From UHGV virus genome UHGV-2113352: a stretch of DNA of 15,144 nucleotides. One strand, given 5' to 3'. The translations under genes and the position numbers were made by a program. Within the stretch, counting starts at the first letter, position 1; each line of letters opens with the position of its first letter. The stretch comes from a virus. The notes under the pieces are model-generated. The model was not told the DNA's origin. It was given only the letters and a program-made list of their open reading frames with translations, and ran no database searches. This document shows, piece after piece, positions 1 through 15,144 of the stretch.

Positions 1-202
1 GCTTACCGCTCATGGGCACCTCTCTTTAAGTCATCTTAAATGACTCTGAGGTGTCTGTTAAACCTGTGGCGATTCATCCCAGATGAACGCTACCAACTTC
101 GACAAGAAAAAACATTGCCTATCTTAGCAAAGTTCAAAGCTTGGCTCGATTCTGTATTCCAACTTATTGATTACAACTAAAAACTGAATGACAATCTGAA
201 AA

Positions 203-694
203 TTAAAGAAAAATATTCATAGCCAAGAATCCGACACCTCCAGCCAACACCAAGATACCTAAAACAACTATGGTTCGTAGCCCGCTTATCGATCTTTGCT
301 GAGACTCCGCCGCCGCCTCTAACTTGCTTTTCAATTCCGCTAATTGTTTAGCAATGCGGCTATCACTTGCTGTGCAGCCTTGTTCAAACTGCTCAGGTGT
401 TACAAACTTCAAGGCTGCAACCTCACGCCTTAGTTTCAACTGTTCATCTTTGATCTGGCCTAGAAGATCATTTAGTGACATAAGGCGACCGTCAAACTCT
501 TCAAATTTATTCGAGTTCTTCGTAAACAATTCAGCGTGTTCATAAGCTAGATTTACGAGCGTTGATTTCGCAGCCTCTATCTCAGTTCTTGCATCGCTGA
601 CGGCGCTCAACAGGCCATTAAACTGTGCCACTTGCGTCGATTGCTCTTCGAGTGAATCGATTACCCGGTGTAGTTTCTGTATGTCATTCACCAA
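203..694 (-). CDS. Small coiled-coil protein with C-terminal transmembrane anchor; third gene of the candidate defence operon
   Basis: 163-aa ORF. Charged, Leu-rich, heptad-like central region followed by a hydrophobic C-terminal segment (TIVVLGILVLAGGVGFLAMNIFL). Its start (TTG 692-694 or GTG 689-691) overlaps the stop of the upstream giant gene (TGA 688-690). A Shine-Dalgarno-like AAGGGG lies on the minus strand at about 700-705. No family recognised. Confidence 0.6.
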   Translation of the reverse strand: MVNDIQKLHRVIDSLEEQSTQVAQFNGLLSAVSDARTEIEAAKSTLVNLAYEHAELFTKNSNKFEEFDGRLMSLNDLLGQIKDEQLKLRREVAALKFVTPEQFEQGCTASDSRIAKQLAELKSKLEAAAESQQRSISGLRTIVVLGILVLAGGVGFLAMNIFL

Positions 695-3600
695 TTAATC
701 CCCTTGTATAGGCTGGTAAGTTTTTCAAGTCTAATTGCCAGTGGAGCTAACAAAGTGTGATAGGAGAACGGATCTCCTAGCTCTTCATTTACTTCCCCAA
801 GAAAATCCAAATCTTCAAATTTCTCATGGACCAAACGAGCAAAGCGACTTCGCGCATTTTCAGAAAATATTGGTTTTAACTGCATAGTTTTTCGGACCAG
901 CTCTAGTGCTTCATCCCTATTATCACTGATCAACCGATCAAATGACGATGCCATTCTTCGCTCTCCATCTGCATCATCAAACTCATCGGAAGCTAGTCGC
1001 AGCACACCACTCAAGTAGTTCAAGAATGCATTATCTTTGTATGACTCTAGGAATCGAGAAATCTGACCTCGTAGGATCGTCATCTTCTCGCTGCTTACTA
1101 AATGTTCCGAGCCCTCTTCTTCATCAGTTTCAAAAAAAACTGATGGCCATAACCTCACCGACACAGAATTCTCAGCCATATTGAGCAAAAGTTGGCTCGA
1201 CTTGTCGTGTCTGAAATAACCCTCTAACTTCTCCTTAAATTCTTTACCATCCATCCTGCCTTCAGCAAATAAACTACAGTGTTCATAAACATTCTTCTGT
1301 GACTGGCGGCGGTTGTAGACAAAATGGTCATAGGACCAAAGTAAAAGAACAAGAAAGATAAATTGCGATTTATCGATAGACCCTTTTCTCAGCTTGTCGC
1401 AGAGAATTTTGTAGTACTGGTTATCACTACTGAACACATCAGCGAGCTTAAACTCAGGATCATACTTTCTGACGGTATGCTCAATTTTCTTTTCCAGGCC
1501 TTCTTCCGATAGGCACTGGAACTCGACAGAGAGCGTTCCATTAAAAAAGTCTTCGATTACCCAGTCAGAGACAATACCTAATTGAGAAAGGCGGTAGATA
1601 GCCTTTTCCAATTTAAACTTTTCCGTACCAAACTGCCTGGCAGTAATGGTCACCGTGTTGTGTTCCTGATTGTACTTAAAAAATTCGTATACATTTGCCA
1701 TCAACTTGAACTCATCATTGATTGTGTCCAAGCCGTTTGTCATCAGGAATAGATTTGTGTTCAGGTCGCTATCGCGACTCAATGACTTCACGTACTCCTT
1801 CAGATCTTTGACGTTCGTGCTAGCGTCCCAAATCTTGTCGAGAATAGCTGAATTGGGCTCTTTTGTGAGAAGCACATAGCAATCTGCGGGTACTTCCTTG
1901 AATAGTTTTTTATCTCGCCCTGCCCTGCCAGCTTCCTGATACAAGGCCTCCATCGACCCAGGTATTCCGAAGTGAACCGTATAGGCAATATTTCCCTTAT
2001 TCACGCCCATTCCGAATGCCTTAGTGGCAGTAAGTAGGCGGTATTTATTTTCTTTAAAATCGTCTTGAACTTGGCGCTTATATCTATCGAAAGCCTCTCC
2101 CTGCAATCCACCCATTTTCGGAGCCGACCCCGAAAAATATCTAACATCCATCTTCAAGAGTGTTGATATTCGGCCCGCTAAGCTATAACACCCCTTAGCT
2201 CCGTTGACGGTAGAAGTGAATATGATCCCCGCCTTATTGCCGTCTTCCCCATCTGAATTCCATTTACCCTCCATTTCAGAAACAAGCTCGACGACTGCAT
2301 CACCTTTACGGCCTTTATCGTCAATGACGTGGAATGATAGTTCCTCGCGAGTGAAGTCCATGGGGGTACGGACAAAATCATCTGGGATATCAAACTCTGT
2401 TTGAATATCCTTTAGGACGTTAACTGATGCTGTTGCCGTTAGACCTATATAACTCGCACTGGGAGCAAACCGTTCGATTGTATTTGCCAGGTTCAGATAA
2501 GAAGTCCTGAAATCATGTCCCCACTCAGACAAACAGTGAGCTTCATCGATCACCGCGTAGGCAAATGAGAGATCTAGTCCGATAGCCAACATCTCTTTTC
2601 TAAACGCATGGGTTTGGAATCGCTCAGGCGATATAAAAACGAAGAAGTACTTACCACGTCCGAAATCTCTCTGAACTTTGGCCTTCTCTCCTGCCTTCAA
2701 ATCACTTGTAATAAAATTGCTTCGAGTGAAGCCGATGCTATCCAAATCTGCTTTCTGGTCATACATCAAACTTTTTATCGGGCACACGACAAAGCTAACG
2801 GCTGGTTGCAGGACCGCAGACAGCTGGTAACAAATCGACTTACCCGAACCTGTAGGCAGCAATCCTATTGTGCCGTTTTTCGAAAGTGCAGATCCTATGA
2901 TACCAACCTGCCCTTCCCTGAAATCTACATCCTCTAGGTATGGTAGAAACAGGTTGCTGAGGAAGTATCTCAGCGACTCTCTCTGCTCGCTGCCTGGGCT
3001 AAGATCTAGCTTGTAGGTAATGGGGTTACTACATGAAAGCTCGAAAAAGTCATAGTCAATCAATTGACTGGTTTCTATTGAAACAGCATCAGAATCTTCG
3101 AAGTTTCGATAGAAATCGAAGTAATCCGTACGTGAATATATGACGTCTTGGTTAACTTGAAAGGAATCGTCATAACGCTCCAGTAAGCTGAAGTCGATGA
3201 ATATATTTTCACCAGACCGTTCGCTCGGAAGCTCATCTGATTCGATCAGCGCAACCTCAATTCGCTTTTCTTCAATGCCGATGAGACGAAAGATATTCGA
3301 TAACAAATCGTTCAGGTCGTCCAGTGCCGCTTCAGCAAAATCAGTTCCATCACGATTGACTATGAATAGTTTTTTCAACTCCCCTAGTCTGATCTGACCG
3401 CGTTCAAGAAGCTCTAATAACAGTATCTGGAAACGCAACGCCGAGGTCAGCCTCAATCGCGAGTCAGTAACATCGACTCCATTTTCATAAGCCTCTTGGT
3501 AATTCAATAAAGAAATACCATTAGGAGGCGTTAGGACACCATTTCGCTCTAGACTATCAACGAGCTGAATTTGAGAAATAATCGAATTTATCTTACTGAT

Positions 3601-5364
3601 AAATGACTGATTCTCAGATGCCACTTCTCGAACAGTGAAACGAACTGTCTTCAGTCCCAAGGTTTCAGTAAACGCATCCCTCATCTCATCTAAATGCTGA
3701 GAATTTTGGTGCTGTTGACCATCTATCTCAATAATTAAACCAACTTGAGGAATGTAAAAATCTACCTGTCGGTTCTGGAATTGTTCAACGTAGACCTGAG
3801 TCATATCGTAAATCTGAACTTCAGGGAGCATTAGTTGTTTTACAAAAATGTACTCACCGAAATACTTTGGAATCAGCTCATCAAAAAACCTTTTCGCTGG
3901 GTAGTACCCAGAATGCTTGTTGCCTCGAATCAATCTATTCCAAAAAACTGGCTTATCTGACACAAGAGCCTGAGCTGATGTATTAAGACCGCTCTTCTCC
4001 AGTTCAATGCCAAATGCCTTCCTCAGTTTCCGCGAGGCTATTGTTGGCTTCCCTCTCTGAAGCATATTCTTAAGAACTTGAATTGCTGCAAATAGCTGTC
4101 CAGACGCCGCTTCAGACGAGATAGAATACTGGAGAAGATTGTGGAAAATGAAGTTATGGTTGGTTCTCGCGTAGTTAGCAGAAAACTTCTTGCTTACAAG
4201 CCTGCTACTAGACTTCGACCTGACATGTCTAGATAGTTCACTTTCGTCCGCCAGCGAGTCGATGATTGGGTTGTACAAATCTGAAAACAGTTGGTTATTG
4301 TGTTGTTGTTCTTGGCTGTCAGTGCCTAGCTCCAATCTATAGAGAGTTTTAACCAACGTAAAAATGTAAATACTTGAATTCGGAAAAGCTTGAGATAGAC
4401 AGCGTGTTATCTCATCAGTTGTAGCCCCCGAAGTTAATACGTCGTCAATGATCAGAAATGTCGGATTTGAATTAGCTTCTATTGAATCAAAATCGGCTTT
4501 ATAGGCACCTCTGACCTGGTGGAGTCTTTGTGCTGCAGTGCAATTAGTCGATTTATCTAATACGTGATCTTTCTCTAATATCTTAGGTTGGTAAGAAGCC
4601 CCTAAAGCAACAGCCAGCGATTTGCCCAAGGTATCTAATGCTTTATCGTCATCTTCAGCCCTAAGCTCAGCGTGACCTAACGCTCGAACAACTATATCTA
4701 TGGCTGGGAATGAAGGAGCTAGCTCAACAGTCTTGTTAACCCAGCGGCGAACAGAAGTATTCTTGTTATCCTTGAAAGACCAAACTTCCTGTTTGATACC
4801 ATCTAAATAGAATCCCAGATGAAGTTTATTCCCAGATTGTATTAACTCAGAACGTCCAGTTCTTGCGGAGCTCCGCGTCGAGTTTTTTCCAATAAGCTCG
4901 GAGAGACTGCTTATTCCCTTATGTGACGAATCGATCTCCGAGGCAGAACCCCAATCTACTGAGAAAAACTCAACTCCTGCATTGGAAGCAGCGTCTCGAT
5001 CTAGGTTACTATCTCCTAAATAAATTGACTCGTCGGCGCTAACACCGAAGTACTCGAGAATACGAGTAACGCCCTCAGGGCTCGGCTTATGCTGCGTTAC
5101 ATCATGGTAGGCTACTACATAATCAACAGTGATACTGAAGTGTTTGAGTAGCCCCTGAACGTAGTTCGAAGGCGCATTCGAGAAGATAGCAACCTTGATT
5201 CCAACCGACCGAGCCGTTGTAACAAGGCCGACAACGTCCTGATTGATGACACAACCATTAAAGTACCTGGGTATGTCTCTCCATCGGCCAGCTGACCGAA
5301 GTGGTTCGAGGCTTGATGTATCAATAAGCGTGTCATCAAGATCGAGGACGATGACCTTTATCAC
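688..5364 (-). CDS. Giant multidomain protein: N-terminal HAD-type phosphatase, phosphoribosyltransferase (PRTase), DUF559 (Vsr-like) endonuclease-like domain, RecQ-like SF2 helicase, and an unassigned ~400-aa C-terminal region
   Basis: 1558-aa uninterrupted ORF. HAD motif I LDLDDTL (aa 7-13) and motif IV GDSNLD (aa 117-122), nt about 4945-5364. PRTase PRPP-binding motif FLIIDDVLTSGATT (aa 303-316, nt 4417-4458). DUF559-type motif VDFYIPQVGLIIEIDGQQH followed by ..RD..L..G..RF (aa 534-577, nt about 3565-3957). RecQ-type helicase motifs: Walker A LPTGSGKS (aa 836-843, nt 2836-2859, checked against DNA), VIDEAHCLSEWGHDFR (aa 938-953, checked), LTATA (aa 975-979), YQEAGRAGRD (aa 1142-1151). GTG start at 5362-5364 overlaps the TGA stop of the upstream DprA-like gene (GTGA); SD-like AAGGTGG sits 6 nt upstream. 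Confidence 0.85.
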   Translation of the reverse strand: MIKVIVLDLDDTLIDTSSLEPLRSAGRWRDIPRYFNGCVINQDVVGLVTTARSVGIKVAIFSNAPSNYVQGLLKHFSITVDYVVAYHDVTQHKPSPEGVTRILEYFGVSADESIYLGDSNLDRDAASNAGVEFFSVDWGSASEIDSSHKGISSLSELIGKNSTRSSARTGRSELIQSGNKLHLGFYLDGIKQEVWSFKDNKNTSVRRWVNKTVELAPSFPAIDIVVRALGHAELRAEDDDKALDTLGKSLAVALGASYQPKILEKDHVLDKSTNCTAAQRLHQVRGAYKADFDSIEANSNPTFLIIDDVLTSGATTDEITRCLSQAFPNSSIYIFTLVKTLYRLELGTDSQEQQHNNQLFSDLYNPIIDSLADESELSRHVRSKSSSRLVSKKFSANYARTNHNFIFHNLLQYSISSEAASGQLFAAIQVLKNMLQRGKPTIASRKLRKAFGIELEKSGLNTSAQALVSDKPVFWNRLIRGNKHSGYYPAKRFFDELIPKYFGEYIFVKQLMLPEVQIYDMTQVYVEQFQNRQVDFYIPQVGLIIEIDGQQHQNSQHLDEMRDAFTETLGLKTVRFTVREVASENQSFISKINSIISQIQLVDSLERNGVLTPPNGISLLNYQEAYENGVDVTDSRLRLTSALRFQILLLELLERGQIRLGELKKLFIVNRDGTDFAEAALDDLNDLLSNIFRLIGIEEKRIEVALIESDELPSERSGENIFIDFSLLERYDDSFQVNQDVIYSRTDYFDFYRNFEDSDAVSIETSQLIDYDFFELSCSNPITYKLDLSPGSEQRESLRYFLSNLFLPYLEDVDFREGQVGIIGSALSKNGTIGLLPTGSGKSICYQLSAVLQPAVSFVVCPIKSLMYDQKADLDSIGFTRSNFITSDLKAGEKAKVQRDFGRGKYFFVFISPERFQTHAFRKEMLAIGLDLSFAYAVIDEAHCLSEWGHDFRTSYLNLANTIERFAPSASYIGLTATASVNVLKDIQTEFDIPDDFVRTPMDFTREELSFHVIDDKGRKGDAVVELVSEMEGKWNSDGEDGNKAGIIFTSTVNGAKGCYSLAGRISTLLKMDVRYFSGSAPKMGGLQGEAFDRYKRQVQDDFKENKYRLLTATKAFGMGVNKGNIAYTVHFGIPGSMEALYQEAGRAGRDKKLFKEVPADCYVLLTKEPNSAILDKIWDASTNVKDLKEYVKSLSRDSDLNTNLFLMTNGLDTINDEFKLMANVYEFFKYNQEHNTVTITARQFGTEKFKLEKAIYRLSQLGIVSDWVIEDFFNGTLSVEFQCLSEEGLEKKIEHTVRKYDPEFKLADVFSSDNQYYKILCDKLRKGSIDKSQFIFLVLLLWSYDHFVYNRRQSQKNVYEHCSLFAEGRMDGKEFKEKLEGYFRHDKSSQLLLNMAENSVSVRLWPSVFFETDEEEGSEHLVSSEKMTILRGQISRFLESYKDNAFLNYLSGVLRLASDEFDDADGERRMASSFDRLISDNRDEALELVRKTMQLKPIFSENARSRFARLVHEKFEDLDFLGEVNEELGDPFSYHTLLAPLAIRLEKLTSLYKGINW

Positions 5365-6347
5365 AGCAGGCCACCTTTTGCTTTCAATGACCCAAATGAA
5401 CTCGCGATATCTTCTAATTGAAGACGAATATCTTCATAAGATTCGCTCGTGTATGGTATCGCCCTCCCTTCGTTAACTAGCTGTTGAGTTCCTGAAATTG
5501 CCTTGATAGTAAGATCTGGATACTTAGCTTTATGTACGTCAGGAACGAAGACAGGACGCATCATAGAGATAGCAGATTTGACTGCGTGCATCGTCCCACC
5601 ATCTATCGAAGTTTCAATAGCAAAGACGGCAGTAGATAAACCTGCTTGTATCCTGTCTCGCTTAGCAAAGAACGCAGGTATTGCTTTGGTTCCTGGTGCA
5701 TTCTCTGCAACTAGAAGTCCGCCCTCGTCCAATATTTCCTTAGCGAGTTCCCGATTACTTGCGGGAGAAATAGACTCCACATCGACAAGAACAGAAATCG
5801 TTGGTGTTTTGGCATCTAATGCCGCGCGATGAGCAATTGTATCGATACCCAGTGCAAGTCCACTGACTATCGTGAAGCCATAAGTCGCAAACTTTTGAAT
5901 AGTTTTAATCGTTAGGGTTTCACCCTTGGGGGTATTTTCACGAGTTCCTACAACAGCTAATGAAAGCCTATTCTCTAAGAGATTTAGATTGCCTTTACAG
6001 TAAAGAAAGGGTGGAGGTTTTGGGAGATCATATAACGAAATTGGATAGTTTTTCGAACCGAAGATAACAATCTCAACTCCTTTATTTTTGAACGAATCAA
6101 TCTCTGTTTTTACTTCGTCCCTGAGAGCCTGGAAGTTCGCAGCGTCGAAGAAACTTTCGAGAGTTGCTCGAGATTTACCATTTGAGATTTTCAGATTGGA
6201 GGAGTTACGTACCAGTTCTTCGAGTGTTGACACTCCGCTGTACGCTGAAAACTTTAAGATTGACAGAACAGTTTCATCACCAACGCTCATTAACTTCTTG
6301 AGAACAAGAGCATCTACAATGTTCACTTCTCCCCCAAAGAACGACAA
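5361..6347 (-). CDS. DprA/Smf-like (SLOG superfamily) Rossmann-fold protein; first gene of the candidate defence operon
   Basis: 328-aa ORF. The central region (LAVVGTRENTPKGE..IVSGLALGIDTIAHRAAL..TISVLV..GGLLVAENAPGT..FFAKRDRIQAGLS..VFAIETSIDGGTMHAV) follows the conserved pattern of the DprA Rossmann domain (GxR.., SGLAxGID..AH..AL, FxxRNRiIaGLS, ..SG). The first start on the track is TTG at 6345-6347; the true start may be the downstream GTG (codon 8) or ATG (codon 20). Confidence 0.75.
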   Translation of the reverse strand: MSFFGGEVNIVDALVLKKLMSVGDETVLSILKFSAYSGVSTLEELVRNSSNLKISNGKSRATLESFFDAANFQALRDEVKTEIDSFKNKGVEIVIFGSKNYPISLYDLPKPPPFLYCKGNLNLLENRLSLAVVGTRENTPKGETLTIKTIQKFATYGFTIVSGLALGIDTIAHRAALDAKTPTISVLVDVESISPASNRELAKEILDEGGLLVAENAPGTKAIPAFFAKRDRIQAGLSTAVFAIETSIDGGTMHAVKSAISMMRPVFVPDVHKAKYPDLTIKAISGTQQLVNEGRAIPYTSESYEDIRLQLEDIASSFGSLKAKGGLL

Positions 6348-6460
6348 TTTTTAGTCCATTTACCATGCAGATTAATTGTATTCGACCAAGAACACAACAC
6401 AAACAAATATAGAATCGCCACGGATAATTTAGACACTTCCGAGCCGTTGATAATACTGGT

Positions 6461-7672
6461 TCAAACTAATGCAGCTATGCCTTTTACCTTGCTTAAAAGT
6501 TCAAGCTGTCGTGAATAAGGTTTTGCGCAATAGTAGGCTTTGATAATCTGCCCCGGTGTCGCATCGCCGGGGTCGAGTCCTTCCTCGCCCAAACACGCTA
6601 CTTTGACATTAAGACCGATACTGGTCAGTCGCCTGGCTGCGGCCATCGTGTTGCGTATAGCTTGCTTTTCACTATCCCACATCATAATCACATTACGTAA
6701 TCCACGCGCCTTGAGCGTCAGGAACGCGCCCAACTGATCTTCTGCATCCTGAGTGGTGTTACCAGATAGATGCATCCCGAACGTTCCTATCGGTTCCACG
6801 TAATCGCGTAATGTTTCTTCATCAAAAATAGCTCGTTTAACCCCCATAACATCGAACGCCCCCTCACAGACAACTACAGTCTGTTTGCCGACTGCATTGT
6901 GGCCGTTGTAGAGAAATTTACCCGATGCTGGCAGCTGCATGGGGAACAGATACCGGCGTTCTGCTGCACCGGTAATGTCACGACCCTGGAAGGTCTTCAT
7001 CACGCCATCCAGATCGTAAACCGGTATCAGTATTCGCATATCGAATACCTGTCCTTTGACCTGGTCTGTGTACGGATCGACGTATGCGTGCTTGCCTTCG
7101 ACGCAGTAACGCAGATCAAAGTATTTGGCCAGCTCCGGGGAAATCTGGCGCTCCACCAGATAATCAGGAAGACGACCGTCAATGGGGAGTTCGTAATGGC
7201 GCGGGAGAGCTACCGGTCCTTCCAGTTCAACCTTGCTGGCCAGTACGATCTCTTCCTTCTTCGGTGCCCATCCTTGTGAGATCAGCGCGTTCTGGACGTA
7301 CTCTTCAAAATCGCGACGAGATTTGCCGCTGTAATGCTTTAGGAAGACCAGCTTGTTGAACTGAATCTTTTCGGGATGATCACCTGCAAAGCATTTGCCG
7401 ACACCACTGGTCAGGTTGAAATAAACCTTCCAGTTTGAGCTGCCGCATACCGGACACTCTTTAATGTTGACCTCTCGTCCGCGAGTACTGACTCCACCAC
7501 GACGGTAGATGATCCCTTCCATATCGAGCCATTGCTCAAAATCCAGCTCGGTCAGTAATTCTTTCAAGTCGCTCACGTTCTTACCCCTATTTTTTGCAGG
7601 TAATATCTTGATAAGCCTCGGTATTTGAATATCATAAAGGCTCATGTGTTTTTTCTTTTGTGGTTTTGGCAA
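6461..7672 (-). CDS. DNA primase, phage T4 gp61-like (zinc ribbon plus TOPRIM)
   Basis: 403-aa ORF. Zinc-ribbon motif CPVCGSSNWKV..C..DH; the stretch ILIPVYDLDGVMKTFQGRDI..VVVCEGAFDVMGV resembles the T4 gp61 primase core (..IPIYN..G....FQGRAL..VYVLEGPIDSLF) as I remember it. Lies directly downstream of the helicase gene, as gene 61 follows gene 41 in T4. The track start is TTG 7670-7672; an in-frame ATG at 7643-7645 (MSLYDIQ..) is a plausible alternative start. Confidence 0.7.
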   Translation of the reverse strand: MPKPQKKKHMSLYDIQIPRLIKILPAKNRGKNVSDLKELLTELDFEQWLDMEGIIYRRGGVSTRGREVNIKECPVCGSSNWKVYFNLTSGVGKCFAGDHPEKIQFNKLVFLKHYSGKSRRDFEEYVQNALISQGWAPKKEEIVLASKVELEGPVALPRHYELPIDGRLPDYLVERQISPELAKYFDLRYCVEGKHAYVDPYTDQVKGQVFDMRILIPVYDLDGVMKTFQGRDITGAAERRYLFPMQLPASGKFLYNGHNAVGKQTVVVCEGAFDVMGVKRAIFDEETLRDYVEPIGTFGMHLSGNTTQDAEDQLGAFLTLKARGLRNVIMMWDSEKQAIRNTMAAARRLTSIGLNVKVACLGEEGLDPGDATPGQIIKAYYCAKPYSRQLELLSKVKGIAALV

Positions 7673-7700
7673 AAGAGAAATTTGTTCTCTTCTGGAGACA

Positions 7701-7736
7701 GGCGTGGAGAGTGTTTCCCCACGCCTTCTTTTTTAG
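7701..7736 (+). terminator. Hairpin plus T-run between helicase and primase genes, oriented as a plus-strand intrinsic terminator
   Basis: GGCGTGG (7701-7707), 11-nt loop, CCACGCC (7719-7725), then TTCTTTTTT. The T-run follows the stem only on the plus strand; on the minus (coding) strand it is an A-run preceding the stem. The T-run overlaps the helicase stop codon (7733-7735). Confidence 0.3.
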
Positions 7737-9073
7737 AGGACGTCCATAATGCGTTCGATGAATCGCATTTGTTCGAGGTTCTGCTTAACGCGGATGCTTA
7801 CGCCGCCTTTCTGGTTACGTGAACCAGCGAAGTAAAGACGCGCTTCGCCTTTCGCTTCTTCTTCTTCCGTTTTGTTGATAGTGATAACGAGGTCAGCGAT
7901 ACGCACCTTCTCGATGTTGTCCGCTGCGTGCATCATTGTAGCCACCTCAGAAGCGCCACCTTCTCTGTTAGTCTGCGATGCCGTGATGCCGGCAACGTTG
8001 TGTTTGTCGTACAGCGCACGCAGGTCAGTGTAGATGCTGCGAATGTTAGCGCGGTCGTCGCGGAGGTCGTAGCTGGCACGCATCAGGTCAGCGTAGTCGA
8101 CCACAACCATATCGGGGACCATACCGTTGGCTTTCATGCTGCCCAACATACGGTCCAGATCTGCGGGCGACATGCTTCCGGACGGTCGTTCAACAATCCA
8201 CAAACTTCCCACGCCTTTCGTCGCACCCAGCTCCGCCAGTTTGCGATGGACGTCATCGCGACGTTCCACCAGCCTGGACATTTCGGTCTCAGACAGACGG
8301 GCGTCAAAGCGATCTGACAGAATGGAGGTGTGAACTTCCAGCGACAGATACAGGACGTTGTAACCGGCAAGCGTGGCGTTGATGGAAAACTCCCCCATCG
8401 CCGTCGATTTACCAGACTTAGCGAAGCCCATAAATAGCACCATTTCACGCTTTGCCCAGCCTTTCTGGTAAAGCAGCTTGTCGAGCAGCGGGAGGCCGGT
8501 AGTGATGCTGTTTGGCACGTAATCGTCGGACGCTTCGTACTCACGGGCCTTGTAACGCTCCGCTGATTCTGCGAAGTAATCGTAAATGCCGGTCGCTTCG
8601 TTAGAGCCAATTTGCTGGACCTTAGCCATGATTGCCATCGCGCCCTGGAAATCGCCCTTCTCTTTCATCTCAGCCGCTTTAATTAGCGCATCGTCGAAAG
8701 CTACGCTTTTAGCAAATGTCGCGACCTGGTCGACCATGTACGCCGTATCTGACAGCTTCTCAGCGAGAATGCGCTTAAACGCCTCAACAACGTCAGGGAA
8801 CAGCTCTTCGCGGATCGTCTTATCGCGTTTGGCGCGTTTGAGCATGTCGAGGATGGCTGATGATGATGGTGCGCTCTTATACATTCTGTAGTAGCCCGAC
8901 ACCATGTTAACCAGAATGGAGTTAGCCGCATTAGAGAACTGGTTTGGGGCAACCAGATCGCCTGCGCGAGTCAGAAACTCATGGTCGCGACAGAAGTAGG
9001 CAGCGAGTCTATTCTGGAAGTCGTCGTCGAACTCTTCAGACAACCCTCGTCCTGTGTGGCAAAGTTCGGTCAT
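7733..9073 (-). CDS. Replicative DNA helicase, DnaB family, phage T4 gp41-like
   Basis: 446-aa ORF. Walker A GFAKSGKST; NVLYLSLEV and VVVDYADLM segments and the C-terminal region parallel T4 gp41 (NVLYISMEM, IIIVDYLGI) as I remember it. ATG start at 9071-9073 with SD-like AAGGAAAG 6-7 nt upstream on the minus strand. Confidence 0.8.
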   Translation of the reverse strand: MTELCHTGRGLSEEFDDDFQNRLAAYFCRDHEFLTRAGDLVAPNQFSNAANSILVNMVSGYYRMYKSAPSSSAILDMLKRAKRDKTIREELFPDVVEAFKRILAEKLSDTAYMVDQVATFAKSVAFDDALIKAAEMKEKGDFQGAMAIMAKVQQIGSNEATGIYDYFAESAERYKAREYEASDDYVPNSITTGLPLLDKLLYQKGWAKREMVLFMGFAKSGKSTAMGEFSINATLAGYNVLYLSLEVHTSILSDRFDARLSETEMSRLVERRDDVHRKLAELGATKGVGSLWIVERPSGSMSPADLDRMLGSMKANGMVPDMVVVDYADLMRASYDLRDDRANIRSIYTDLRALYDKHNVAGITASQTNREGGASEVATMMHAADNIEKVRIADLVITINKTEEEEAKGEARLYFAGSRNQKGGVSIRVKQNLEQMRFIERIMDVL

Positions 9074-9092
9074 GTGCTTTCCTTTGATACTT

Positions 9093-9112
9093 AAACAAAT
9101 TGTTTTCTAATA
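9093..9112 (-). promoter_or_regulatory. Candidate promoter/operator upstream of the helicase gene (motif B, copy 1)
   Basis: Plus-strand AAACAAATTGTTTTCTAATA; read on the minus strand it is TATTAGAAAACAATTTGTTT. It contains the inverted repeat AACAA-N-TTGTT, lies 20-39 nt upstream of the helicase ATG, and has a -10-like TAGTAT/TATTAG with a -35-like TTGATC 17 bp further upstream (plus 9132-9137). It matches 18 of 20 positions with 12013-12032. Confidence 0.4.
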
Positions 9113-9133
9113 CTAGAAAATCCAGATAGGGGA

Positions 9134-9859
9134 TCAACAGAATCGCCGTGCTTCTTCCAGTTCTTCCGGGAAATGCGCATAAATTACACGCTCAGGTACG
9201 ATTTCCATCAACCAGACTGCGGAGAAGATGATGCGGATGCGTTTATCTCGGGTAATGCCACGCAGACGCTCCAGAATCCACTCAAAATAGCGTTCTTGAA
9301 TCGGGTCGTGCTGCATGTCTCCCAGATACTTAAAACTCACCAGAGAGTCATCCAGACGGGTTACAGCGCGTTTGGCTAACTTCTCTTCGAATATCTCGAT
9401 CAGCTCGGGCTGCCAGAGATGCTGGGGGCGAGGCAATTTGTCCCACAGACGGCGCGCAGCTGCGGACAGAACGGTAGAAATGAAGTAGTCATAAGAGCAG
9501 CAGTACTGGTCGGCAAACTGGCGTGCTTTCCAGAGAGACGTTTTGTTGACCGTCGACAACTCCTGATATGGCACACGCTTCAGACCGGTTGTGAATGGAG
9601 CCGTCTCATAGTGTTCACGACCATGCGACAGCATGATGTATGAGTACTGGCGCTTGTATGCCTCAGTGAAAAGGCATGTGGCCATGAGCGGGTGCATATC
9701 GCGATAGTCAAACCATTTGGTTTCGAACAGTTCCGCCTCGTCCTTGCAACGTGACAGGCCAATGTTCTCCGCGACCCACTTATCCATGACTGCGGTGTTC
9801 CACTCTGTCATGAAATCGTACTGGTCATTGTCGATAGTGTTGAAGAAGATCTGGCTCAC
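9134..9859 (-). CDS. Hypothetical protein, first gene of the helicase-primase operon
   Basis: 241-aa ORF with GTG start at 9857-9859 and SD-like AAAGGGAA upstream. Co-directional and closely spaced with the helicase gene. No family recognised by eye. Confidence 0.55.
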   Translation of the reverse strand: MSQIFFNTIDNDQYDFMTEWNTAVMDKWVAENIGLSRCKDEAELFETKWFDYRDMHPLMATCLFTEAYKRQYSYIMLSHGREHYETAPFTTGLKRVPYQELSTVNKTSLWKARQFADQYCCSYDYFISTVLSAAARRLWDKLPRPQHLWQPELIEIFEEKLAKRAVTRLDDSLVSFKYLGDMQHDPIQERYFEWILERLRGITRDKRIRIIFSAVWLMEIVPERVIYAHFPEELEEARRFC

Positions 9860-9871
9860 ATGATTCCCTTT

Positions 9872-9893
9872 AATAGGTATGTACTTACTTATC
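9872..9893 (-). promoter_or_regulatory. Candidate operator (motif A, copy 1) upstream of the 241-aa gene and replication operon
   Basis: AATAGGTATGTACTTACTTATC; the 15-mer TAGGTATGTACTTAC (9874-9888) is identical to 14611-14625. Imperfect inverted repeat around the central TGTACT. Lies 13-34 nt upstream of the GTG start at 9859. Confidence 0.4.
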
Positions 9894-9964
9894 TAAGTGA
9901 GCGAATCATAGCGACTGGAGATATTTTTGGGAAGTGGAAACGGAAGGGAGTTGTTCTGGTGGGT

Positions 9965-9978
9965 GTCTTTTAAAAGAC
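9965..9978. promoter_or_regulatory. Perfect 14-bp palindrome GTCTTTTAAAAGAC in the divergent intergenic region
   Basis: Self-complementary 14-mer, flanked by CGGAAG (left) and CTTCCG (right) inverted segments and followed by an AT-rich tract (about 9990-10035). Lies between the divergently transcribed replication operon and the GIY-YIG-like gene. Confidence 0.35.
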
Positions 9979-10159
9979 CTGCTTCCGTATATATTTAATA
10001 AGTTACTTATTATTTATATACAGAAACAGGCATAACTTGTCGTCTTAGACACCCAGAAGCTCTACACTTTGAGCCTGTAAAATTGATTAAAAACTTATGT
10101 GTAAAATAGAACGCATTAGTCAGTAGCTAAGAGATGATTTATCGGTATACGCGAGATCA

Positions 10160-10897
10160 TTGGATAAGGCTAAATACTATGTTTACTGTCTCTATGATAC
10201 AGAAGACAAGATGAAAAGACCGTTTTACATAGGAAAAGGCAAATCGACTCGTTGTCTCGATCACATCAAGTATCCCGATGACTCTCCCAAATCCATGCGG
10301 ATCAAAGAACTTTTGGCTAATAAAAAATTAGGCATAGATATTCTTCGTCATGGTATGGATGAAACCACAGCCAAACTTGTTGAGGCGACATGCATCGACC
10401 TTATGGGGGTCGGAGAGCTTACGAATAAGGTACGAGGAAGTGGTTCCATGATGGGCAGAATATCACTGGACGCCTACCATCACTTAGTGCTGCAAGAGGA
10501 AACTGAAATTGCTCCTGAGCACGCCGGTCTTGCCTTCCTGCTAAACAGCACCTACAAGTCAGGAATGTCCGCTCTGGCATTATATGAAGCTACGCGTGGC
10601 GTATGGGCAAAGGTTCCAAGAGACGAGAATCTCAAATATGCCTACGCTACATATGGGGGCCTGATAATGGAAGTTTATCAGATTGAATGCTGGGTCAAAG
10701 CCGGTTCTCAGCAGTACTTTACAAGGGATATAGCTCTTGGCCCCGACACAAAACGTTATGAATTTGTTGGCAGAATAGCCGATGAGCATATTAGAAAACT
10801 GTATGTAGGCAAATTAATCAAGAAGCCACCAAGCTACGGCAGCCCTTTTGTGAAGGTTGGGGTGGTTAGGAATGAACATAGTGTTAGCGCGGCATAA
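10160..10897 (+). CDS. Hypothetical protein with an N-terminal GIY-YIG-like nuclease motif
   Basis: 245-aa ORF, the only long plus-strand gene in this region and divergent from the replication operon. N-terminus YYVYCLYD..KRPFYIGKGKSTRCLDH fits the GIY-(10-11)-YIG-..R..H pattern of GIY-YIG nucleases. The C-terminal ~150 aa is unassigned. Confidence 0.4.
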   Translation: MDKAKYYVYCLYDTEDKMKRPFYIGKGKSTRCLDHIKYPDDSPKSMRIKELLANKKLGIDILRHGMDETTAKLVEATCIDLMGVGELTNKVRGSGSMMGRISLDAYHHLVLQEETEIAPEHAGLAFLLNSTYKSGMSALALYEATRGVWAKVPRDENLKYAYATYGGLIMEVYQIECWVKAGSQQYFTRDIALGPDTKRYEFVGRIADEHIRKLYVGKLIKKPPSYGSPFVKVGVVRNEHSVSAA

Positions 10898-10949
10898 AGC
10901 TGACACTGTACTTATGCATTGGCGCGTACATTGCGCCAATGCATAATTT

Positions 10950-11309
10950 TTAACCTTTCTTCATCAACTCTCGTTTGATTTCATCGGTACGCATCGTGAC
11001 ATCGGCAGCTGTGATCGCCTCGTTAAGTTTCACGATGTCCTCGATTTCCTGCGGTGACTTCTCTGCCAGATGGAAAATGGCTGCGCGAATCACGTCAGAA
11101 CGGGTGAACTTCTCGAAACGAGGGATGAACTTCATCATTTCCAGCAGTTCGAAGTATTCGTCCTCCAGTGACATTGTGCGGCTTTTAATTTTCTCTTTGC
11201 CACGAGTCGGGCGTCCCTGTGGTCTGACTGGTTGGCGCAAAGGAGTTGTGTTCTTGGCCGGTGCATCAGGCTCTTTGCGCTTTGCTAGGTCACCCATTTT
11301 CATGGACAT
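10950..11309 (-). CDS. Putative partition adaptor / centromere-binding protein (ParG/ParB-like small partner of ParA)
   Basis: 119-aa ORF immediately downstream of the ParA-like gene; its ATG (11307-11309) overlaps the ParA TAA by 1 nt. Basic, Pro-rich N-terminal tail and a helical C-terminal half, as in small type Ib partition partners. Assignment is by position and composition only. Confidence 0.45.
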   Translation of the reverse strand: MSMKMGDLAKRKEPDAPAKNTTPLRQPVRPQGRPTRGKEKIKSRTMSLEDEYFELLEMMKFIPRFEKFTRSDVIRAAIFHLAEKSPQEIEDIVKLNEAITAADVTMRTDEIKRELMKKG

Positions 11310-11977
11310 TATTCTTCTTCCTCCAGACTCAACAGATAATCTACAAATTCTTCAAACTCGGCTTCCGCCTTTTTGTCGCGCTCGCTACCGGTCATTTCAA
11401 AGATAGAACGACCAGACTCTTCCGCATCATCATAGACGTTGCGGTTATATAAATTGACTGGCGCAGACTCGATGCCAAACGTCTCGACAATCTCTTTAGC
11501 CGCCAAAATGCGAGACACTTGTGATGGCAAAGCCGGGCACTGGTTCATGACCGCGCGGACCTTCACTTTATCGTTTACATTACGAACATTGTCGATAATA
11601 GGATCGATGTCACGCAGAGATTTCAAATCACGACGCTTAGGACGAAGCGGGATAATGATAACGTCGGCCATCAGCATCGCTTGTCGCTGAATTTCGGAGT
11701 CAAAGCCACCAGCATCTACCACTACAAACTCAGCTCTACCCTGAAGCGATTTTAGGTGCTTAATGATGTCATCCTGAACGTATGCAAAAGGAATCAGCTC
11801 AAGGTCTTCGTTCTGTCGACGGTCTTCACACCAGCTTGTTGTCGTGCGCTGAATATCTATATCAGTGATATAAACCTTCTTCTTCTTTTTGACTTTCAGG
11901 CAAACGGCAATTTGCTGGGCAACAGTGGATTTGCCAGGCCCGCCCTTTGTGCCGCCAACCACAAAGATCTTGGTCAT
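11309..11977 (-). CDS. parA: ParA-family partition ATPase (short, type Ib-like)
   Basis: 222-aa ORF. Deviant Walker A IFVVGGTKGGPGKST near the N-terminus and VVVDAGG (Walker A'/B-like); the size is typical of plasmid ParF/ParA type Ib ATPases. ATG at 11975-11977 with SD-like AAAGGGAA upstream. Confidence 0.65.
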   Translation of the reverse strand: MTKIFVVGGTKGGPGKSTVAQQIAVCLKVKKKKKVYITDIDIQRTTTSWCEDRRQNEDLELIPFAYVQDDIIKHLKSLQGRAEFVVVDAGGFDSEIQRQAMLMADVIIIPLRPKRRDLKSLRDIDPIIDNVRNVNDKVKVRAVMNQCPALPSQVSRILAAKEIVETFGIESAPVNLYNRNVYDDAEESGRSIFEMTGSERDKKAEAEFEEFVDYLLSLEEEE

Positions 11978-12012
11978 TGGAGAGTTCCCTTTGCGTATAT
12001 AATTATCGTCTG

Positions 12013-12032
12013 AAACAACTTGTTTTCTTATA
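12013..12032 (-). promoter_or_regulatory. Candidate promoter/operator upstream of parA (motif B, copy 2)
   Basis: Plus-strand AAACAACTTGTTTTCTTATA; minus-strand sense TATAAGAAAACAAGTTGTTT with a -10-like TATAAG and the inverted repeat AACAA-N-TTGTT. Lies 36-55 nt upstream of the parA ATG. Confidence 0.4.
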
Positions 12033-12256
12033 TGTGATATAGCCTAAATGCCTACGGCTGCGGTGTAAAGGTTATTTAGTAGGTTGTTATTGCCTATTGC
12101 TAGTAACTGTTTTCATTTGTCTGTTGAAAAAAGTGACAATCATCTCTATATTACGAGTACGGTAAATTGCCGTACACAATTTGATGACACATACGCAATG
12201 GGCTATAGCCCAGTTAAATAACCTTTGAGTCGAAAACTCAGTTTAAATAGAGAGCA

Positions 12257-12286
12257 ATGATGGCCTTCCTACATCACCGGCCATCA
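12257..12286 (+). promoter_or_regulatory. Candidate TacA (antitoxin) autoregulatory operator
   Basis: Perfect 8-bp inverted repeat TGATGGCC (12257-12264) and GGCCATCA (12279-12286) with a 14-bp spacer, ending directly before the AGGGGG SD and the ATG at 12297. Confidence 0.4.
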
Positions 12287-12296
12287 GGGGGTACAC

Positions 12297-12566
12297 ATGT
12301 CCGCACTGAAAAAGCAGCGCATCGATTTGAGATTAACCGATGACGATAAAAGCATCATCGAGGAAGCTGCCGCAATGTCTAACCAGAGCATTACCCAGTT
12401 CATGGTTAGCAGTGCATCCGAACGTGCCGTGAAGGTGATAGAGCAACACCGTAGACTGGTTCTAAGTGAAGAGTCCTGGAATCTGGTTATGGATGCTATA
12501 AGCAATCCTCCGGCACCGAACGACAAGCTGAAACGAGCTGCCAATCGTCTGAAAAGCATGGAGTAA
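12297..12566 (+). CDS. DUF1778 (RHH-type) antitoxin of a GNAT toxin-antitoxin pair (TacA/AtaR-like)
   Basis: 89-aa ORF MSALKKQRIDLRLTDDDKSIIEEAAA..SNPPAPNDKLKRAANRLKSME closely matches the TacA/AtaR antitoxin family as I remember it. Sits 7 nt upstream of the GNAT toxin gene. AGGGGG SD before the ATG. Confidence 0.8.
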   Translation: MSALKKQRIDLRLTDDDKSIIEEAAAMSNQSITQFMVSSASERAVKVIEQHRRLVLSEESWNLVMDAISNPPAPNDKLKRAANRLKSME

Positions 12567-12573
12567 TTTACTC

Positions 12574-13095
12574 GTGAGCAATACGACGATCGAGATTTTC
12601 TCTGGAGAGAACGATTATGATCTAAACGGTTTTGATTGCGGCGAAGAGTCACTAAACGCATTTTTGACCAACCACTTAAAAAGACAGCATGAAGGAAAAA
12701 TTCTTCGCGCTTATGTGCTTTGCACTAAAGAAGAAATACCAAAGGTATTAGGTTATTACACTTTGTCAGGCAGCTGCTTTGAGAAAGAAACCTTACCTTC
12801 AAAGAGTCAGCAAAAGAAAGTGCCTTATCGGAATGTCCCAAGTATCACTTTAGGCAGACTGGCTTTGGACAAATCTCTTCAAGGTCAGGGGCTTGGCTCA
12901 ATGCTTGTAACTCACGCAATGCGTGTTGTGTACAATGCATCTCTTGCGGTAGGCATTCATGGGCTTTTCGTTGAGGCGTTGAACGATAAAGCCAGGGCGT
13001 TTTATAAAAGTTTGGGCTTTATCCAGCTGGTTGGTAACAACGATCGTTCTTTGTTCTATCCAACAAAATCTATCGAAAAATTGTTCGAAGAATAA
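12574..13095 (+). CDS. GNAT-family acetyltransferase toxin (TacT/AtaT-like, aminoacyl-tRNA acetylating)
   Basis: 173-aa ORF with GTG start. Acetyl-CoA binding motif QGQGLGSMLV; size and the upstream DUF1778 antitoxin are typical of TacAT/AtaRT/KacAT modules. Confidence 0.8.
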   Translation: MSNTTIEIFSGENDYDLNGFDCGEESLNAFLTNHLKRQHEGKILRAYVLCTKEEIPKVLGYYTLSGSCFEKETLPSKSQQKKVPYRNVPSITLGRLALDKSLQGQGLGSMLVTHAMRVVYNASLAVGIHGLFVEALNDKARAFYKSLGFIQLVGNNDRSLFYPTKSIEKLFEE

Positions 13096-13101
13096 TGTGT
13101 C

Positions 13102-13117
13102 CCCCTCATTTGAGGGG
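13102..13117 (+). terminator. GC-rich hairpin immediately after the tacT stop codon (possible terminator or stabilising stem-loop in the convergent gap)
   Basis: CCCCTC (13102-13107), loop ATTT, GAGGGG (13112-13117), starting 7 nt after TAA (13093-13095). No clear U-tract on the plus strand; modestly T-rich on the minus-strand side. Confidence 0.25.
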
Positions 13118-13127
13118 AACTTGGACA

Positions 13128-13343
13128 TCACCAACCGCAAACTCTCTCTCCCATCGTATTGTGAAAAAGGATTTGGCGTTCGGTTTCTTCGGTCATTACA
13201 TCGTCATTGCTGATATAAATAGGTTCAGCGCCATCGCAGAACAACACGCTGGTGGTCTGTGGCTTAATTACGCACCCACTTATCATGCAGCTCACGATGA
13301 ATGGCAGAAGCATCTTTCTGACGTATTTCACTGTTCGTCTCAT
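13128..13343 (-). CDS. Putative o-spanin (Rz1-like outer-membrane lipoprotein), overlapping the 3' end of the i-spanin-like gene in another frame
   Basis: 71-aa ORF with ATG at 13341-13343. Lipoprotein-type signal peptide: basic n-region MRRTVKYVRK, hydrophobic MLLPFIVSCMIS and lipobox ISGC. The short mature part has further Cys residues. Overlaps 13264-13343 of the upstream gene and extends beyond its stop, the overlapped spanin architecture. Confidence 0.4.
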   Translation of the reverse strand: MRRTVKYVRKMLLPFIVSCMISGCVIKPQTTSVLFCDGAEPIYISNDDVMTEETERQILFHNTMGERVCGW

Positions 13344-13515
13344 TCACCACTTCCACTGTGCTTTGAAGACGCTTGTTATCTTCCCGCCGTTCTTTCTCTT
13401 CCATACTGCGTCTGGCCATATACCCGCCATAGGAGTATGCGCCGACAAGGACTAGAATGACGGCGGCCAGAGTGAACAAAGCGGATTTCATTTTGAACAA
13501 CAGGCCGTCGAACAT
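13264..13515 (-). CDS. Putative i-spanin (Rz-like) or holin-like small membrane protein
   Basis: 83-aa ORF. N-terminal transmembrane segment ALFTLAAVILVLVGAYSYGGY followed by a highly charged periplasmic-type tail. ATG at 13513-13515 is only 2 nt downstream of the stop of the preceding gene. Contains the overlapping lipoprotein ORF. Confidence 0.4.
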   Translation of the reverse strand: MFDGLLFKMKSALFTLAAVILVLVGAYSYGGYMARRSMEEKERREDNKRLQSTVEVVNETNSEIRQKDASAIHRELHDKWVRN

Positions 13516-13517
13516 AC

Positions 13518-14237
13518 TTACACTAATCCTTTCTGGTGCTTGCGAACCTGGGACCAGGCAATGAATGCTGCCACAAGAATGGTAGCTACGCCAAAGATGA
13601 TGCGTACCGTATCTCCACTGGAGATATTGCCTTGCGCTTTATCCATTGCGGCAGAAACTTGAGGCATAACGTCAGCAATTTGTGCAAGGCCAATACCTGC
13701 AGTGACTGTAGCACCTGTGGTTTCTTTTGTTACTGGAACGGCTTTTACAGCCTTTACCGGTTTGACAATGCCGGCACGTCGCAGACCTTCTTCGATAAGT
13801 TCTGGTGTATACCAGCTATTGGGAGTTTTCAGCGGACCTCGGCCATTTTCATGTCTAATGATCGCCTCTACCAGCGGTCTTAAGGTCTCGTAGTCATGCA
13901 GATCGATAATCATATCTGGTGCTACTCCAACGGCTTTGGATACCTCGTTCACATAAGCCAAAGTGTTGTTCTCATGTGGAGGCGCCCAGCGTTCGATGAC
14001 TTCGCGGATCGTATCAATGCTGGAGCCATCTTTTGCGCGGCGCTTGTCGTGGTAAGTAATGAGTGTCACTGCCAATGCCCGAATCCCCCACACGGGGTCT
14101 TTAAACGTGCAGAAGCGCGGTTCTGAAGAGTTGTTGACTAAGCCCTGCCACGGCGCTCCTTTATCAAGATTACCGGGGTTGTTATTACGAATGCCTCTCG
14201 GAGTTTTCATCCTTGATCTCCTGTTATTGCAATCCAT
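13518..14237 (-). CDS. Hypothetical membrane-anchored protein; candidate lysis enzyme (endolysin-like) by position only
   Basis: 239-aa ORF with ATG at 14235-14237. Conserved-looking N-terminal motif RGIRNNNPGNL; C-terminal hydrophobic helix VRIIFGVATILVAAFIAWSQV. Located between a small membrane protein gene and the spanin-like pair. No catalytic family could be assigned by eye. Confidence 0.5.
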   Translation of the reverse strand: MDCNNRRSRMKTPRGIRNNNPGNLDKGAPWQGLVNNSSEPRFCTFKDPVWGIRALAVTLITYHDKRRAKDGSSIDTIREVIERWAPPHENNTLAYVNEVSKAVGVAPDMIIDLHDYETLRPLVEAIIRHENGRGPLKTPNSWYTPELIEEGLRRAGIVKPVKAVKAVPVTKETTGATVTAGIGLAQIADVMPQVSAAMDKAQGNISSGDTVRIIFGVATILVAAFIAWSQVRKHQKGLV

Positions 14238-14559
14238 TTTTTACGCCATACGCGGCCAATCCTAAAAGCAGTACGGTAATAATGAACGACGTTATTTTCG
14301 AAACAATGCCGCCAAAGAACCCACTGGAGATGGTGTCGAGCCGGTTAAGAAGTTTGTCCAGATTGGAGTGCTGAATGCTGTATTGTGCGGGCGTCATATC
14401 GCCAAAGTAGGTTTTGAGCTGGTCATTGACCTCCTGACCAATTTCCTCGCGTATTTCTTTACCTAATTTGCCTACGACTTCCCGAGCAACGATTGAGGCG
14501 ATGCGCTCAACCTGTTCAGTTGTGACTCCCGCCATCTCGTTCGACATGTTTTCCTCCAT
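14224..14559 (-). CDS. Small membrane protein, candidate holin or antiholin (positional inference)
   Basis: 111-aa ORF with ATG at 14557-14559. Hydrophilic N-terminal ~75 aa and a single C-terminal transmembrane helix ITSFIITVLLLGLAAYGV. Overlaps the next gene by 14 nt. Confidence 0.45.
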   Translation of the reverse strand: MEENMSNEMAGVTTEQVERIASIVAREVVGKLGKEIREEIGQEVNDQLKTYFGDMTPAQYSIQHSNLDKLLNRLDTISSGFFGGIVSKITSFIITVLLLGLAAYGVKNGLQ

Positions 14560-14607
14560 GAAAAGTCAAATCGGGATGGCGTGTTTATATCATATTTTAA
14601 CCATTTG

Positions 14608-14631
14608 TAGTAGGTATGTACTTACCTACTA
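14608..14631 (-). promoter_or_regulatory. Candidate operator (motif A, copy 2) upstream of the lysis-like operon
   Basis: TAGTAGGTA-TGTACT-TACCTACTA: a perfect 9-bp inverted repeat with 6-bp spacer. Lies 49-72 nt upstream of the ATG at 14559 and shares the 15-mer TAGGTATGTACTTAC with copy 1. Confidence 0.45.
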
Positions 14632-14680
14632 TATATCTTGCAAACTAATCGTTGTTAATAATGCAGATATAATCTGCCCC

Positions 14681-15028
14681 TTACTCTGCTGGTATTGTTG
14701 GCCAGTCAATATCCGGTGCCGTTGATGTGTCAATGCGGTTCAATAAAACTCTATACTTCTTCCATGCAGTCAGCAACGATGCTTCTTCCTCCGTTGCAAT
14801 CTCCAAATCTACAGCATCCTGAAGTGGCGCAATGTGCTCGCTGGCTACCTGCATCAGACTTTTTTTTGTTTCTTCCGCTTCCCGTACCTGAAACAATTTT
14901 TCTGTTTCCTTATCCTTCTCCCAGGATGTGCCGTCCCACTTCTGATATTCCCCATCCGGTGATAACCAGGTGACATTTTCCGGTAATGGCCCAAGTTCAG
15001 AAATAAACAACGCGTCCCCTGATTCCAC
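14681..15028 (-). CDS. Tail fibre assembly protein (Tfa family), apparently lacking an N-terminal domain
   Basis: 115-aa ORF ending ..[32 protein letters not shown], the conserved C-terminal signature of enterobacterial phage Tfa proteins (TfaE, Mu U, P1 U type). The track start is GTG at 15026-15028. The same frame stays open upstream to a stop at 15128-15130 and encodes ..[11 protein letters not shown].., which looks like continued Tfa homology, with no ATG/GTG/TTG in between. Confidence 0.7.
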
Positions 15029-15144
15029 GTCATAGACCGTTTTACCCCTGTGGTCTTCAACGAGACTCCGGTAATGACTCCAACTTATTGATAGTGTTTT
15101 ATGTTCAGATAATGCCCGATGACTTTGTCATGCAGCTCCACCGA

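Follow-up and report, generated by a model that had tools for sequence, protein, structure and literature searches.

The right-hand end of an IS1 element adjoins a start-less tail fibre assembly gene in phage-plasmid-like DNA of Escherichia coli

Tfa proteins, fibre modules and IS1 in related systems

The closest described relative of the gene treated here encodes the tail fibre assembly protein Tfa of phage lambda (orf-194, 194 amino acids; Caudo_TAP domain, PF02413) and lies directly downstream of the side-tail-fibre gene. Natural loss of side-tail-fibre function is represented by the tfa pseudogenes of cryptic prophages. Gene disruption by IS1 (IS1A/IS1B) is known in Enterobacteriaceae; insertion of this element gives a target duplication of 8-9 bp and is classically polar, and IS1 also promotes adjacent deletions and forms composite transposons. 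In addition, site-specific inversion systems adjoin tfa genes in P1, Mu, e14 and Rac/Qin, and the junctions of these systems (P1 Cin/C, Mu Gin/G, e14 Pin/P and Qin PinQ) can likewise leave start-less tfa-like frames. PinQ is a described example of an inversion system near tfa (PMC12529663). Tfa proteins are built in modules, with a variable domain at the N-terminus that binds the distal fibre and a conserved helical one at the C-terminus that oligomerises, as summarised together with the structure of Mu Tfa, 5YVQ (PMC9608196). Another example of natural side-tail-fibre loss by a single lesion is the stf frameshift of lambda PaPa, which is tolerated since the central J-like fibre suffices for infection; in lambda, plaque formation requires neither stf nor tfa (PMC10695390).

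In the window, that is, the whole stretch of 15,144 nt analysed here (UHGV virus genome UHGV-2113352), a tfa gene of this type has lost its 5' part at the right end of an IS1 element. Intact relatives of the gene encode proteins 86% identical to lambda Tfa over 191 aligned residues (1 to 191) and, as in lambda, lie directly downstream of a side-tail-fibre gene; alignment with full-length proteins upheld the Tfa sequence that an earlier note on this DNA had invoked, lambda Tfa being alike from end to end. Unlike lambda Tfa, the window copy lacks residues 1-65 and the start signal, and it lies on an SSU5-type phage-plasmid of roughly 105-115 kb and not on a lambdoid prophage. In the case of Mu Tfa (gpU; PDB 5YVQ, chain B, 111-174), the C-terminal helical region aligns with residues 125-191, and only these; similarity in the N-terminal sequence is undetectable, so that the domain boundary is placed here by analogy, with the two-domain model of Mu Tfa predicting the effect of the truncation (PMC9608196). 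The locus has the same 23-bp inverted repeat (IRR), the same insB 3' end and the same terminal-base junction as known IS1 disruptions, also in an E. coli host, although here a single IS1 end is visible and the junction is covered by no record among the complete E. coli genomes, PLSDB plasmids and phage records searched. In contrast to the invertible segments, the tfa locus of the window has neither an invertase nor crossover repeats, nor a duplicate cassette on the opposite strand. Finally, whereas lambda PaPa carries a frameshift in stf and the cryptic prophages carry pseudogenes, the lesion here appears to be an IS insertion in the chaperone gene of an element that otherwise looks intact.

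The IS1 end and the reading frames of the tfa remnant

The relevant features of the window are the following.

14681..15069, minus strand: 3' remnant of tfa, comprising codons 66-193 with the stop codon, preceded by the last 2 nt of codon 65
14681..15028, minus strand: mechanically called ORF of 115 amino acids from the first in-frame start, equal to residues 79-193 of intact Tfa
15029..15069, minus strand: start-less Tfa coding stretch, 13 codons plus 2 nt of the former Trp65 codon
15061..15069, minus strand: putative copy of the target-site duplication, 9 bases, GGAGTCTCG (read on the minus strand), inferred
15070..15092, minus strand: IS1 IRR, 23 bp, GGTAATGACTCCAACTTATTGAT (read on the plus strand), its outermost base 15070 adjoining tfa
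15070..15144, minus strand: right-hand end of IS1 (IS1A/IS1B type), cut by the window edge
15085..15144, minus strand: last 19 codons and stop of IS1 insB, from translation, matching the annotated transposase
15128..15130, minus strand: TGA within IS1 that closes the tfa frame upstream, from translation

Bases 15070-15144 are the right end of an IS1 element. All 75 of the 75 nucleotides are identical to IS1 in complete E. coli genomes, in which this end (matches of at least 80% of its length) occurs in 4,942 of 5,426 genomes with a median of 10 occurrences in each, and the annotation under the 100% matches is IS1 family transposase, IS1A/IS1B. The source contig (JBBGNV010000036.1 of GCA_037638555.1, 43,041 bp, a draft) ends 109 nt inside IS1; with its 34 further bases, which reach into insB, the identity extends to 109 of 109 nt. 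The 23-bp IRR at 15070-15092 is exact and is the sole IS1 end within the window, and the transposase of the element is oriented as tfa is.

The intact tfa gene of pTB212, pLAO18 and pGS04EC-1 measures 582 nt and encodes 193 amino acids. In relation to the pTB212 gene (locus L001, 6482-7063), the remnant is identical in 388 of 389 nt and collinear to the stop codon, retaining residues 66-193 with one substitution, E118K. This gene is widespread: the exact 193-residue Tfa of pTB212 is found on 232 contigs in a collection of about 15 billion proteins, its 90% cluster has 112 members, mostly of 193 amino acids, and at least 75 PLSDB plasmids carry at least 80% of the 582-nt tfa. All intact relatives among the complete E. 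coli genomes, PLSDB plasmids and phage records align up to base 15069, and none past it. In a base-level alignment, pTB212 reads ..AATAAATCAT / GGAGTCTCGTT.. (K-S-W-S-L-V) and the window ..GAGTCATTACC / GGAGTCTCGTT.., which places the breakpoint between bases 1 and 2 of codon Trp65, equivalent to tfa nt 193/194, and to the base at the terminal base of the IS1 IRR. The target adjoins an A/T-rich run (..GAAAATAAATCAT / GG..). The missing 193 nt of the gene (codons 1-64 plus 1 nt) are absent elsewhere in the window. Given matches of 388/389 nt with intact tfa and 75/75 nt with IS1, chance is not an issue. Related plasmids carry one tfa copy per locus, preceded by a fibre gene in pGS04EC-1 and by a fibre gene and a macro-domain gene in pTB212; in the window IS1 lies upstream of tfa, which is thus not directly downstream of its cognate tail-fibre gene.

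The reading frames given in the earlier note were confirmed on translation and direct reading. The 115-amino-acid ORF runs on the minus strand from GTG 15028-15026 to TAA 14683-14681, and its frame is open upstream as far as TGA 15130-15128, with ATG, GTG and TTG all lacking in that interval. Another frame, which comes in at the window edge and ends at TAA 15087-15085, proves to be the C-terminus of InsB (..HYLNIKHYQ*; about 30 codons with the extra contig bases), the visible insB codons being identical to those of IS1 and their stop lying 15 nt from the outer end of the element (base 15070). The third minus-strand frame leaving IS1 meets TGA 15107-15105. Since all three frames that exit IS1 are therefore closed before the junction, a fusion of InsB to Tfa is ruled out. 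As for the Tfa likeness claimed upstream of the GTG, it holds for 15029-15069 (13 codons and 2 nt), which is 100% identical to tfa of pTB212, pLAO18 and pGS04EC-1, but not for the residues SWSHY, which the earlier note, not recognising IS1, had counted as Tfa and which are the translated terminal repeat of IS1; their resemblance to the authentic KSWSLVEDH of intact Tfa is a coincidence. The Arg codon at the junction is a hybrid, with its C from IS1 and its GG from Trp65. The supposed 5' truncation is borne out by the relatives, which encode the 193-residue Tfa and not a short one from the equivalent GTG; in the full-length genes of pTB212, pLAO18 and pGS04EC-1 this GTG is the internal codon Val79.

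Patterns of 44 and 27 nt spanning the IS1/tfa junction gave no match in GTDB genome contigs, IMG/VR or JGI metagenomes. A candidate in the chromosome of NCTC9040 proved to be unrelated: there (locus L012, 1516-2863), an IS1SD follows an intact prophage tfa on its 3' side at a distance of 71 bp, and that tfa encodes 192 amino acids and is 87% identical to the window remnant. This arrangement is easily mistaken for the window event in a casual search.

Probable insertion of IS1 and the competing readings

Very probably, a copy of IS1 transposed into the lambda-type tfa gene of an SSU5/pHCM2-type phage-plasmid and cut it at codon 65. The element would have landed in the gene of the side-tail-fibre assembly chaperone, an orthologue of lambda Tfa, and the remnant would thereby have been deprived of its promoter-proximal end together with the ribosome-binding site, the start codon and some 65 N-terminal residues, which by analogy with Mu Tfa would belong to the domain that binds the fibre tip. 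As to the form of the event, a simple insertion with a 9-bp duplication is probable, in which case the 5' piece of tfa would lie about 0.77 kb further on. Simple insertion predicts a reciprocal junction ...AAATCATGGAGTCTCG / GGTGATGCTGCC... beyond IS1; with a 9-bp duplication, the expected order would be ...AATAAATCATGGAGTCTCG and then the IS1 left end GGTGATGCTGCCAACTTACTGAT, the predicted target-site duplicate being the nonamer listed above and its second copy falling beyond the contig end. The single nucleotide change in 389 and the unchanged length of the neighbouring genes (all 13 other source-contig genes called in the window match their counterparts in the relatives in length) fit a recent single event.

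A less likely form, which nevertheless deserves consideration, is that the same IS1 end marks an adjacent deletion, an inversion, a cointegrate or a composite transposon. The 5' part of tfa, with or without the upstream fibre genes, would then be gone or far away, and cargo would be possible. Rearrangements of this kind are known for IS1, structural turnover is considerable in the backbone of the relatives, and the reciprocal junction is found in no public record searched. Moreover, 20 of 20 predicted 5'-fragment products, covering duplications of 0, 8, 9 and 10 bp and N-terminal variants (e.g., ..NKSWSLG* for 9 bp), are absent from the protein collection. However, these look-ups demanded the exact sequence, so that a match would be missed after a single SNP or where the small ORF had not been called, and the negative is a weak one. 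Simple insertion is also the commonest outcome of IS1 transposition, and the remnant and its neighbours are otherwise intact and near-identical to those of the relatives, which suggests a recent single event.

Far less probable is that the locus makes a functional Tfa of 115 amino acids from GTG 15028, by read-through from IS1 or outward transcription, for fibre assembly or for another role; the earlier note had offered a short Tfa from this GTG as its alternative. The ORF is indeed intact and includes Caudo_TAP positions 12-130 together with the whole conserved C-terminal helical domain, other lineages too keep intact C-terminal ORFs after 5' lesions, and because the remnant as a whole retains the entire Caudo_TAP domain, some residual activity of a GTG product would be conceivable. 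Against this, no Shine-Dalgarno sequence is found within 5-10 nt of GTG 15028, the nearest AGGGG being 16 nt upstream, and a consensus scan of 14200-15144 returned no sigma-70-like promoter and no terminator-like site, a result that neither supports nor excludes read-through. The classical polarity of IS1 also speaks against expression, and the start in question is an internal Val codon in the full-length relatives. The exact 115-residue product occurs on one contig only, the source itself, among the approximately 15 billion proteins, and the intactness of the remnant is explained by the recency of the event. In addition, the N-terminal region through which Tfa binds its fibre is largely missing, half of it or more (PMC9608196).

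An assembly artefact, in which the contig end was misjoined to an IS1 k-mer and the real tfa is intact, is highly improbable. The junction does sit only 109 nt away from where a short-read draft contig stops, and it occurs in no other public record searched; yet the join coincides exactly with the terminal base of the IS1 IRR, which is expected of transposition and not of a random chimera, and genuine repeat boundaries normally leave contigs that stop inside the repeat, less than one k-mer from its edge.

Finally, the earlier note had seen in the locus a recombination junction, possibly of an invertible or shuffled segment. A DNA junction does exist just upstream of the GTG and the gene is 5'-truncated, but the break is the outer end of the IS1 IRR, and a crossover point of site-specific inversion or a shufflon of the Cin/Gin/Pin type, swapping cassettes of tail fibre and tfa genes, can practically be discounted. 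Such systems are known beside tfa, as noted above, and the fibre/tfa module of this family is mosaic, with two alleles of the 5' third of tfa and another fibre module in some relatives. However, the break coincides exactly with the last base of the IS1 inverted repeat, each relative has one tfa copy, no pair of inverted crossover repeats brackets the remnant, and the module boundary of the family lies 3' of tfa near 14625 and not at 15069. A search for an invertase was equally negative: resolvase/invertase Pfam families are found on none of the source-contig genes within 10 kb nor in the extra window ORFs checked, and no invertase is annotated within about 6-12 kb upstream of tfa in pTB212, pLAO18 and pGS04EC-1.

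Fate of the remnant and its phage-plasmid context

The Caudo_TAP profile (PF02413) matches the remnant over positions 1-130 of 131 with E=9e-45, scoring 152.5 bits for the whole remnant and 143.7 bits for the ORF from the GTG, with a gathering cut-off of 22.1; in intact Tfa the domain corresponds to residues 72-191. The remnant is also assigned to PHROG 105, tail fiber assembly. The fact that it scores as a full Pfam domain explains its annotation as a tail fibre assembly protein. By the usual measure of a full-length Tfa (about 175-195 codons, its own start and the N-terminal region), the window copy is a gene fragment. In an AlphaFold2 single-sequence model of intact Tfa, the helical hairpin at the C-terminus (residues 118-176) is the sole part predicted with confidence; pLDDT is 30-40 for residues 1-100, and the model, uninformative for residues 1-110, was not used in arguments about domains. 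From position and by analogy, the IS1 cut would bisect the folded N-domain of Tfa, and half or more of the fibre-binding N-terminal region would be gone from the remnant. Since the first in-frame start has no Shine-Dalgarno sequence and the frames are closed, the remnant is most likely an untranslated pseudogene, as judged from its sequence, and the phage-plasmid would most likely be unable to mature side tail fibres. A J-like central fibre gene is present in the relatives as well, so that loss of Tfa should remove the side fibres but not necessarily infectivity. By analogy with lambda, the lesion would probably slow adsorption or narrow the host range without killing the phage, and it is irrelevant to maintenance of the plasmid.

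This lesion is not the only one of its gene. In public data, at least three independent 5' lesions of tfa are found: that of IS1 at nt 193/194, that of an IS3-family element at about nt 138, and a deletion of nt 20-83. The IS3-family element (rve transposase) ends ..CCACTACA directly against tfa nt ~138, equivalent to about 15125 of the window had the gene been intact (loci L008, 1-520; L009, 1-1216; L010, 1-205). The element matches copies in many E. coli chromosomes at 100% identity, and the interruption leaves a 151-amino-acid ORF (P0019) on 19 short contigs; the IS3/tfa junction, sought as a precedent of simple insertion, was not found in PLSDB plasmids. In the third case, a frameshifting deletion of 64 nt at GTGA microhomologies in E. 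coli ERZ1645016 scaffold_9 (locus L006, 2904-3420), gene callers start at an internal GTG and give a 139-amino-acid "tail fiber assembly protein" (P0020). By source name, the same product also stands under Shigella sonnei accessions, and a further 139-amino-acid call in locus L007 was rejected as a mere artefact of the contig edge. After each of the three lesions, an intact ORF still encodes the conserved C-terminal oligomerisation domain. Such recurrence would fit relaxed selection on side fibres. That the lesions are selected and not neutral, either because side-fibre loss aids the plasmid lifestyle or because the headless C-domain of Tfa has a function of its own, is a long shot; if it were so, the expressed C-domain might block fibre assembly of superinfecting phages of the lambdoid, P1 or P2 types, which have near-identical Tfa C-domains.

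Sequence comparison places the window in an SSU5/pHCM2-type phage-plasmid of E. coli, a type marked by a collinear backbone of replication/partition and siphovirus late genes on plasmids of roughly 100-115 kb. Positions 1-15069 are 98.3% identical to pLAO18, an IncFIB plasmid of 111.9 kb, and the other relatives are many non-mobilizable plasmids of 96-115 kb in E. coli and E. fergusonii. Genes of the relatives include those for a DnaB-like helicase, a primase, a ParA-like protein, the J-like fibre and a tape-measure protein. Downstream of tfa, on the same strand, are a holin-like gene, the endolysin gene and the Rz/Rz1 spanin genes, and this lysis cassette has about 82% DNA identity to those of Salmonella phage SSU5 and Escherichia phage Cyrano. 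The endolysin ORF (13518-14237, minus strand; PHROG 873) is annotated as endolysin in SSU5 and Cyrano and as "membrane protein" in RefSeq plasmids; it has a hydrophobic C-terminal stretch (..IIFGVATILVAAFIAWSQV..), and the mechanical ORF exceeds the annotated gene of 230 amino acids by 9 codons.

Several other parts of the window and of its relatives deserve mention. In the 5' third of tfa in relatives (nt ~100-160; loci L001, 6871-7063, and L004, 4995-5190), two diverged alleles are found, ..PAYSTDIAPPDV.. and ..PANSTDIAPPDI.., the latter as in lambda, and they accompany different upstream genes, namely either a macro-domain protein gene with a fibre gene of 3.15 kb, or a fibre gene of 2.7 kb that overlaps the start of tfa. 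This distribution fits an N-domain that co-varies with its fibre. Between tfa and the holin gene, a near-perfect palindrome occupies 14603-14636 (arms of 17 nt, no spacer); relatives of the pYLPI6a type, which have a gp38-like "receptor-recognizing protein" in place of tfa and, with it, another fibre gene, lose homology at about 14625, inside this palindrome, which may be a terminator, an operator or a boundary of module exchange. Another variable region is a cargo slot at about 151-6448, common to pLAO18 and a few more relatives, with a 1558-amino-acid HAD/DUF559/DEAD-helicase fusion (688-5364, minus strand) and DprA (5361-6347, minus strand); many collinear plasmids have a fimbrial usher/chaperone operon instead. 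A TacA-like antitoxin (DUF1778, 89 amino acids) and a GNAT acetyltransferase toxin (173 amino acids) are encoded in the other orientation at 12297-13095 (plus strand), in the interval that separates the lysis cassette from the ParA-like gene; the pair is kept in all relatives examined and is likely a plasmid-addiction module.

The loss of the tfa start is an ordinary case of a gene disrupted by a common mobile element, and it matters little past correct annotation: the 115-amino-acid ORF should be recorded as an IS1-interrupted tfa pseudogene and not as a short tail fibre assembly protein. Where homology continues without a start codon at the edge of a contig or window, the ends of insertion sequences are the first thing to check. 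The recurrent lesions of tfa agree with the known dispensability of lambda-type side fibres, which makes them unsurprising, and they could feed a survey of phage-plasmid decay. As for the strain from which this DNA derives, its phage-plasmid is predicted to be without side tail fibres.
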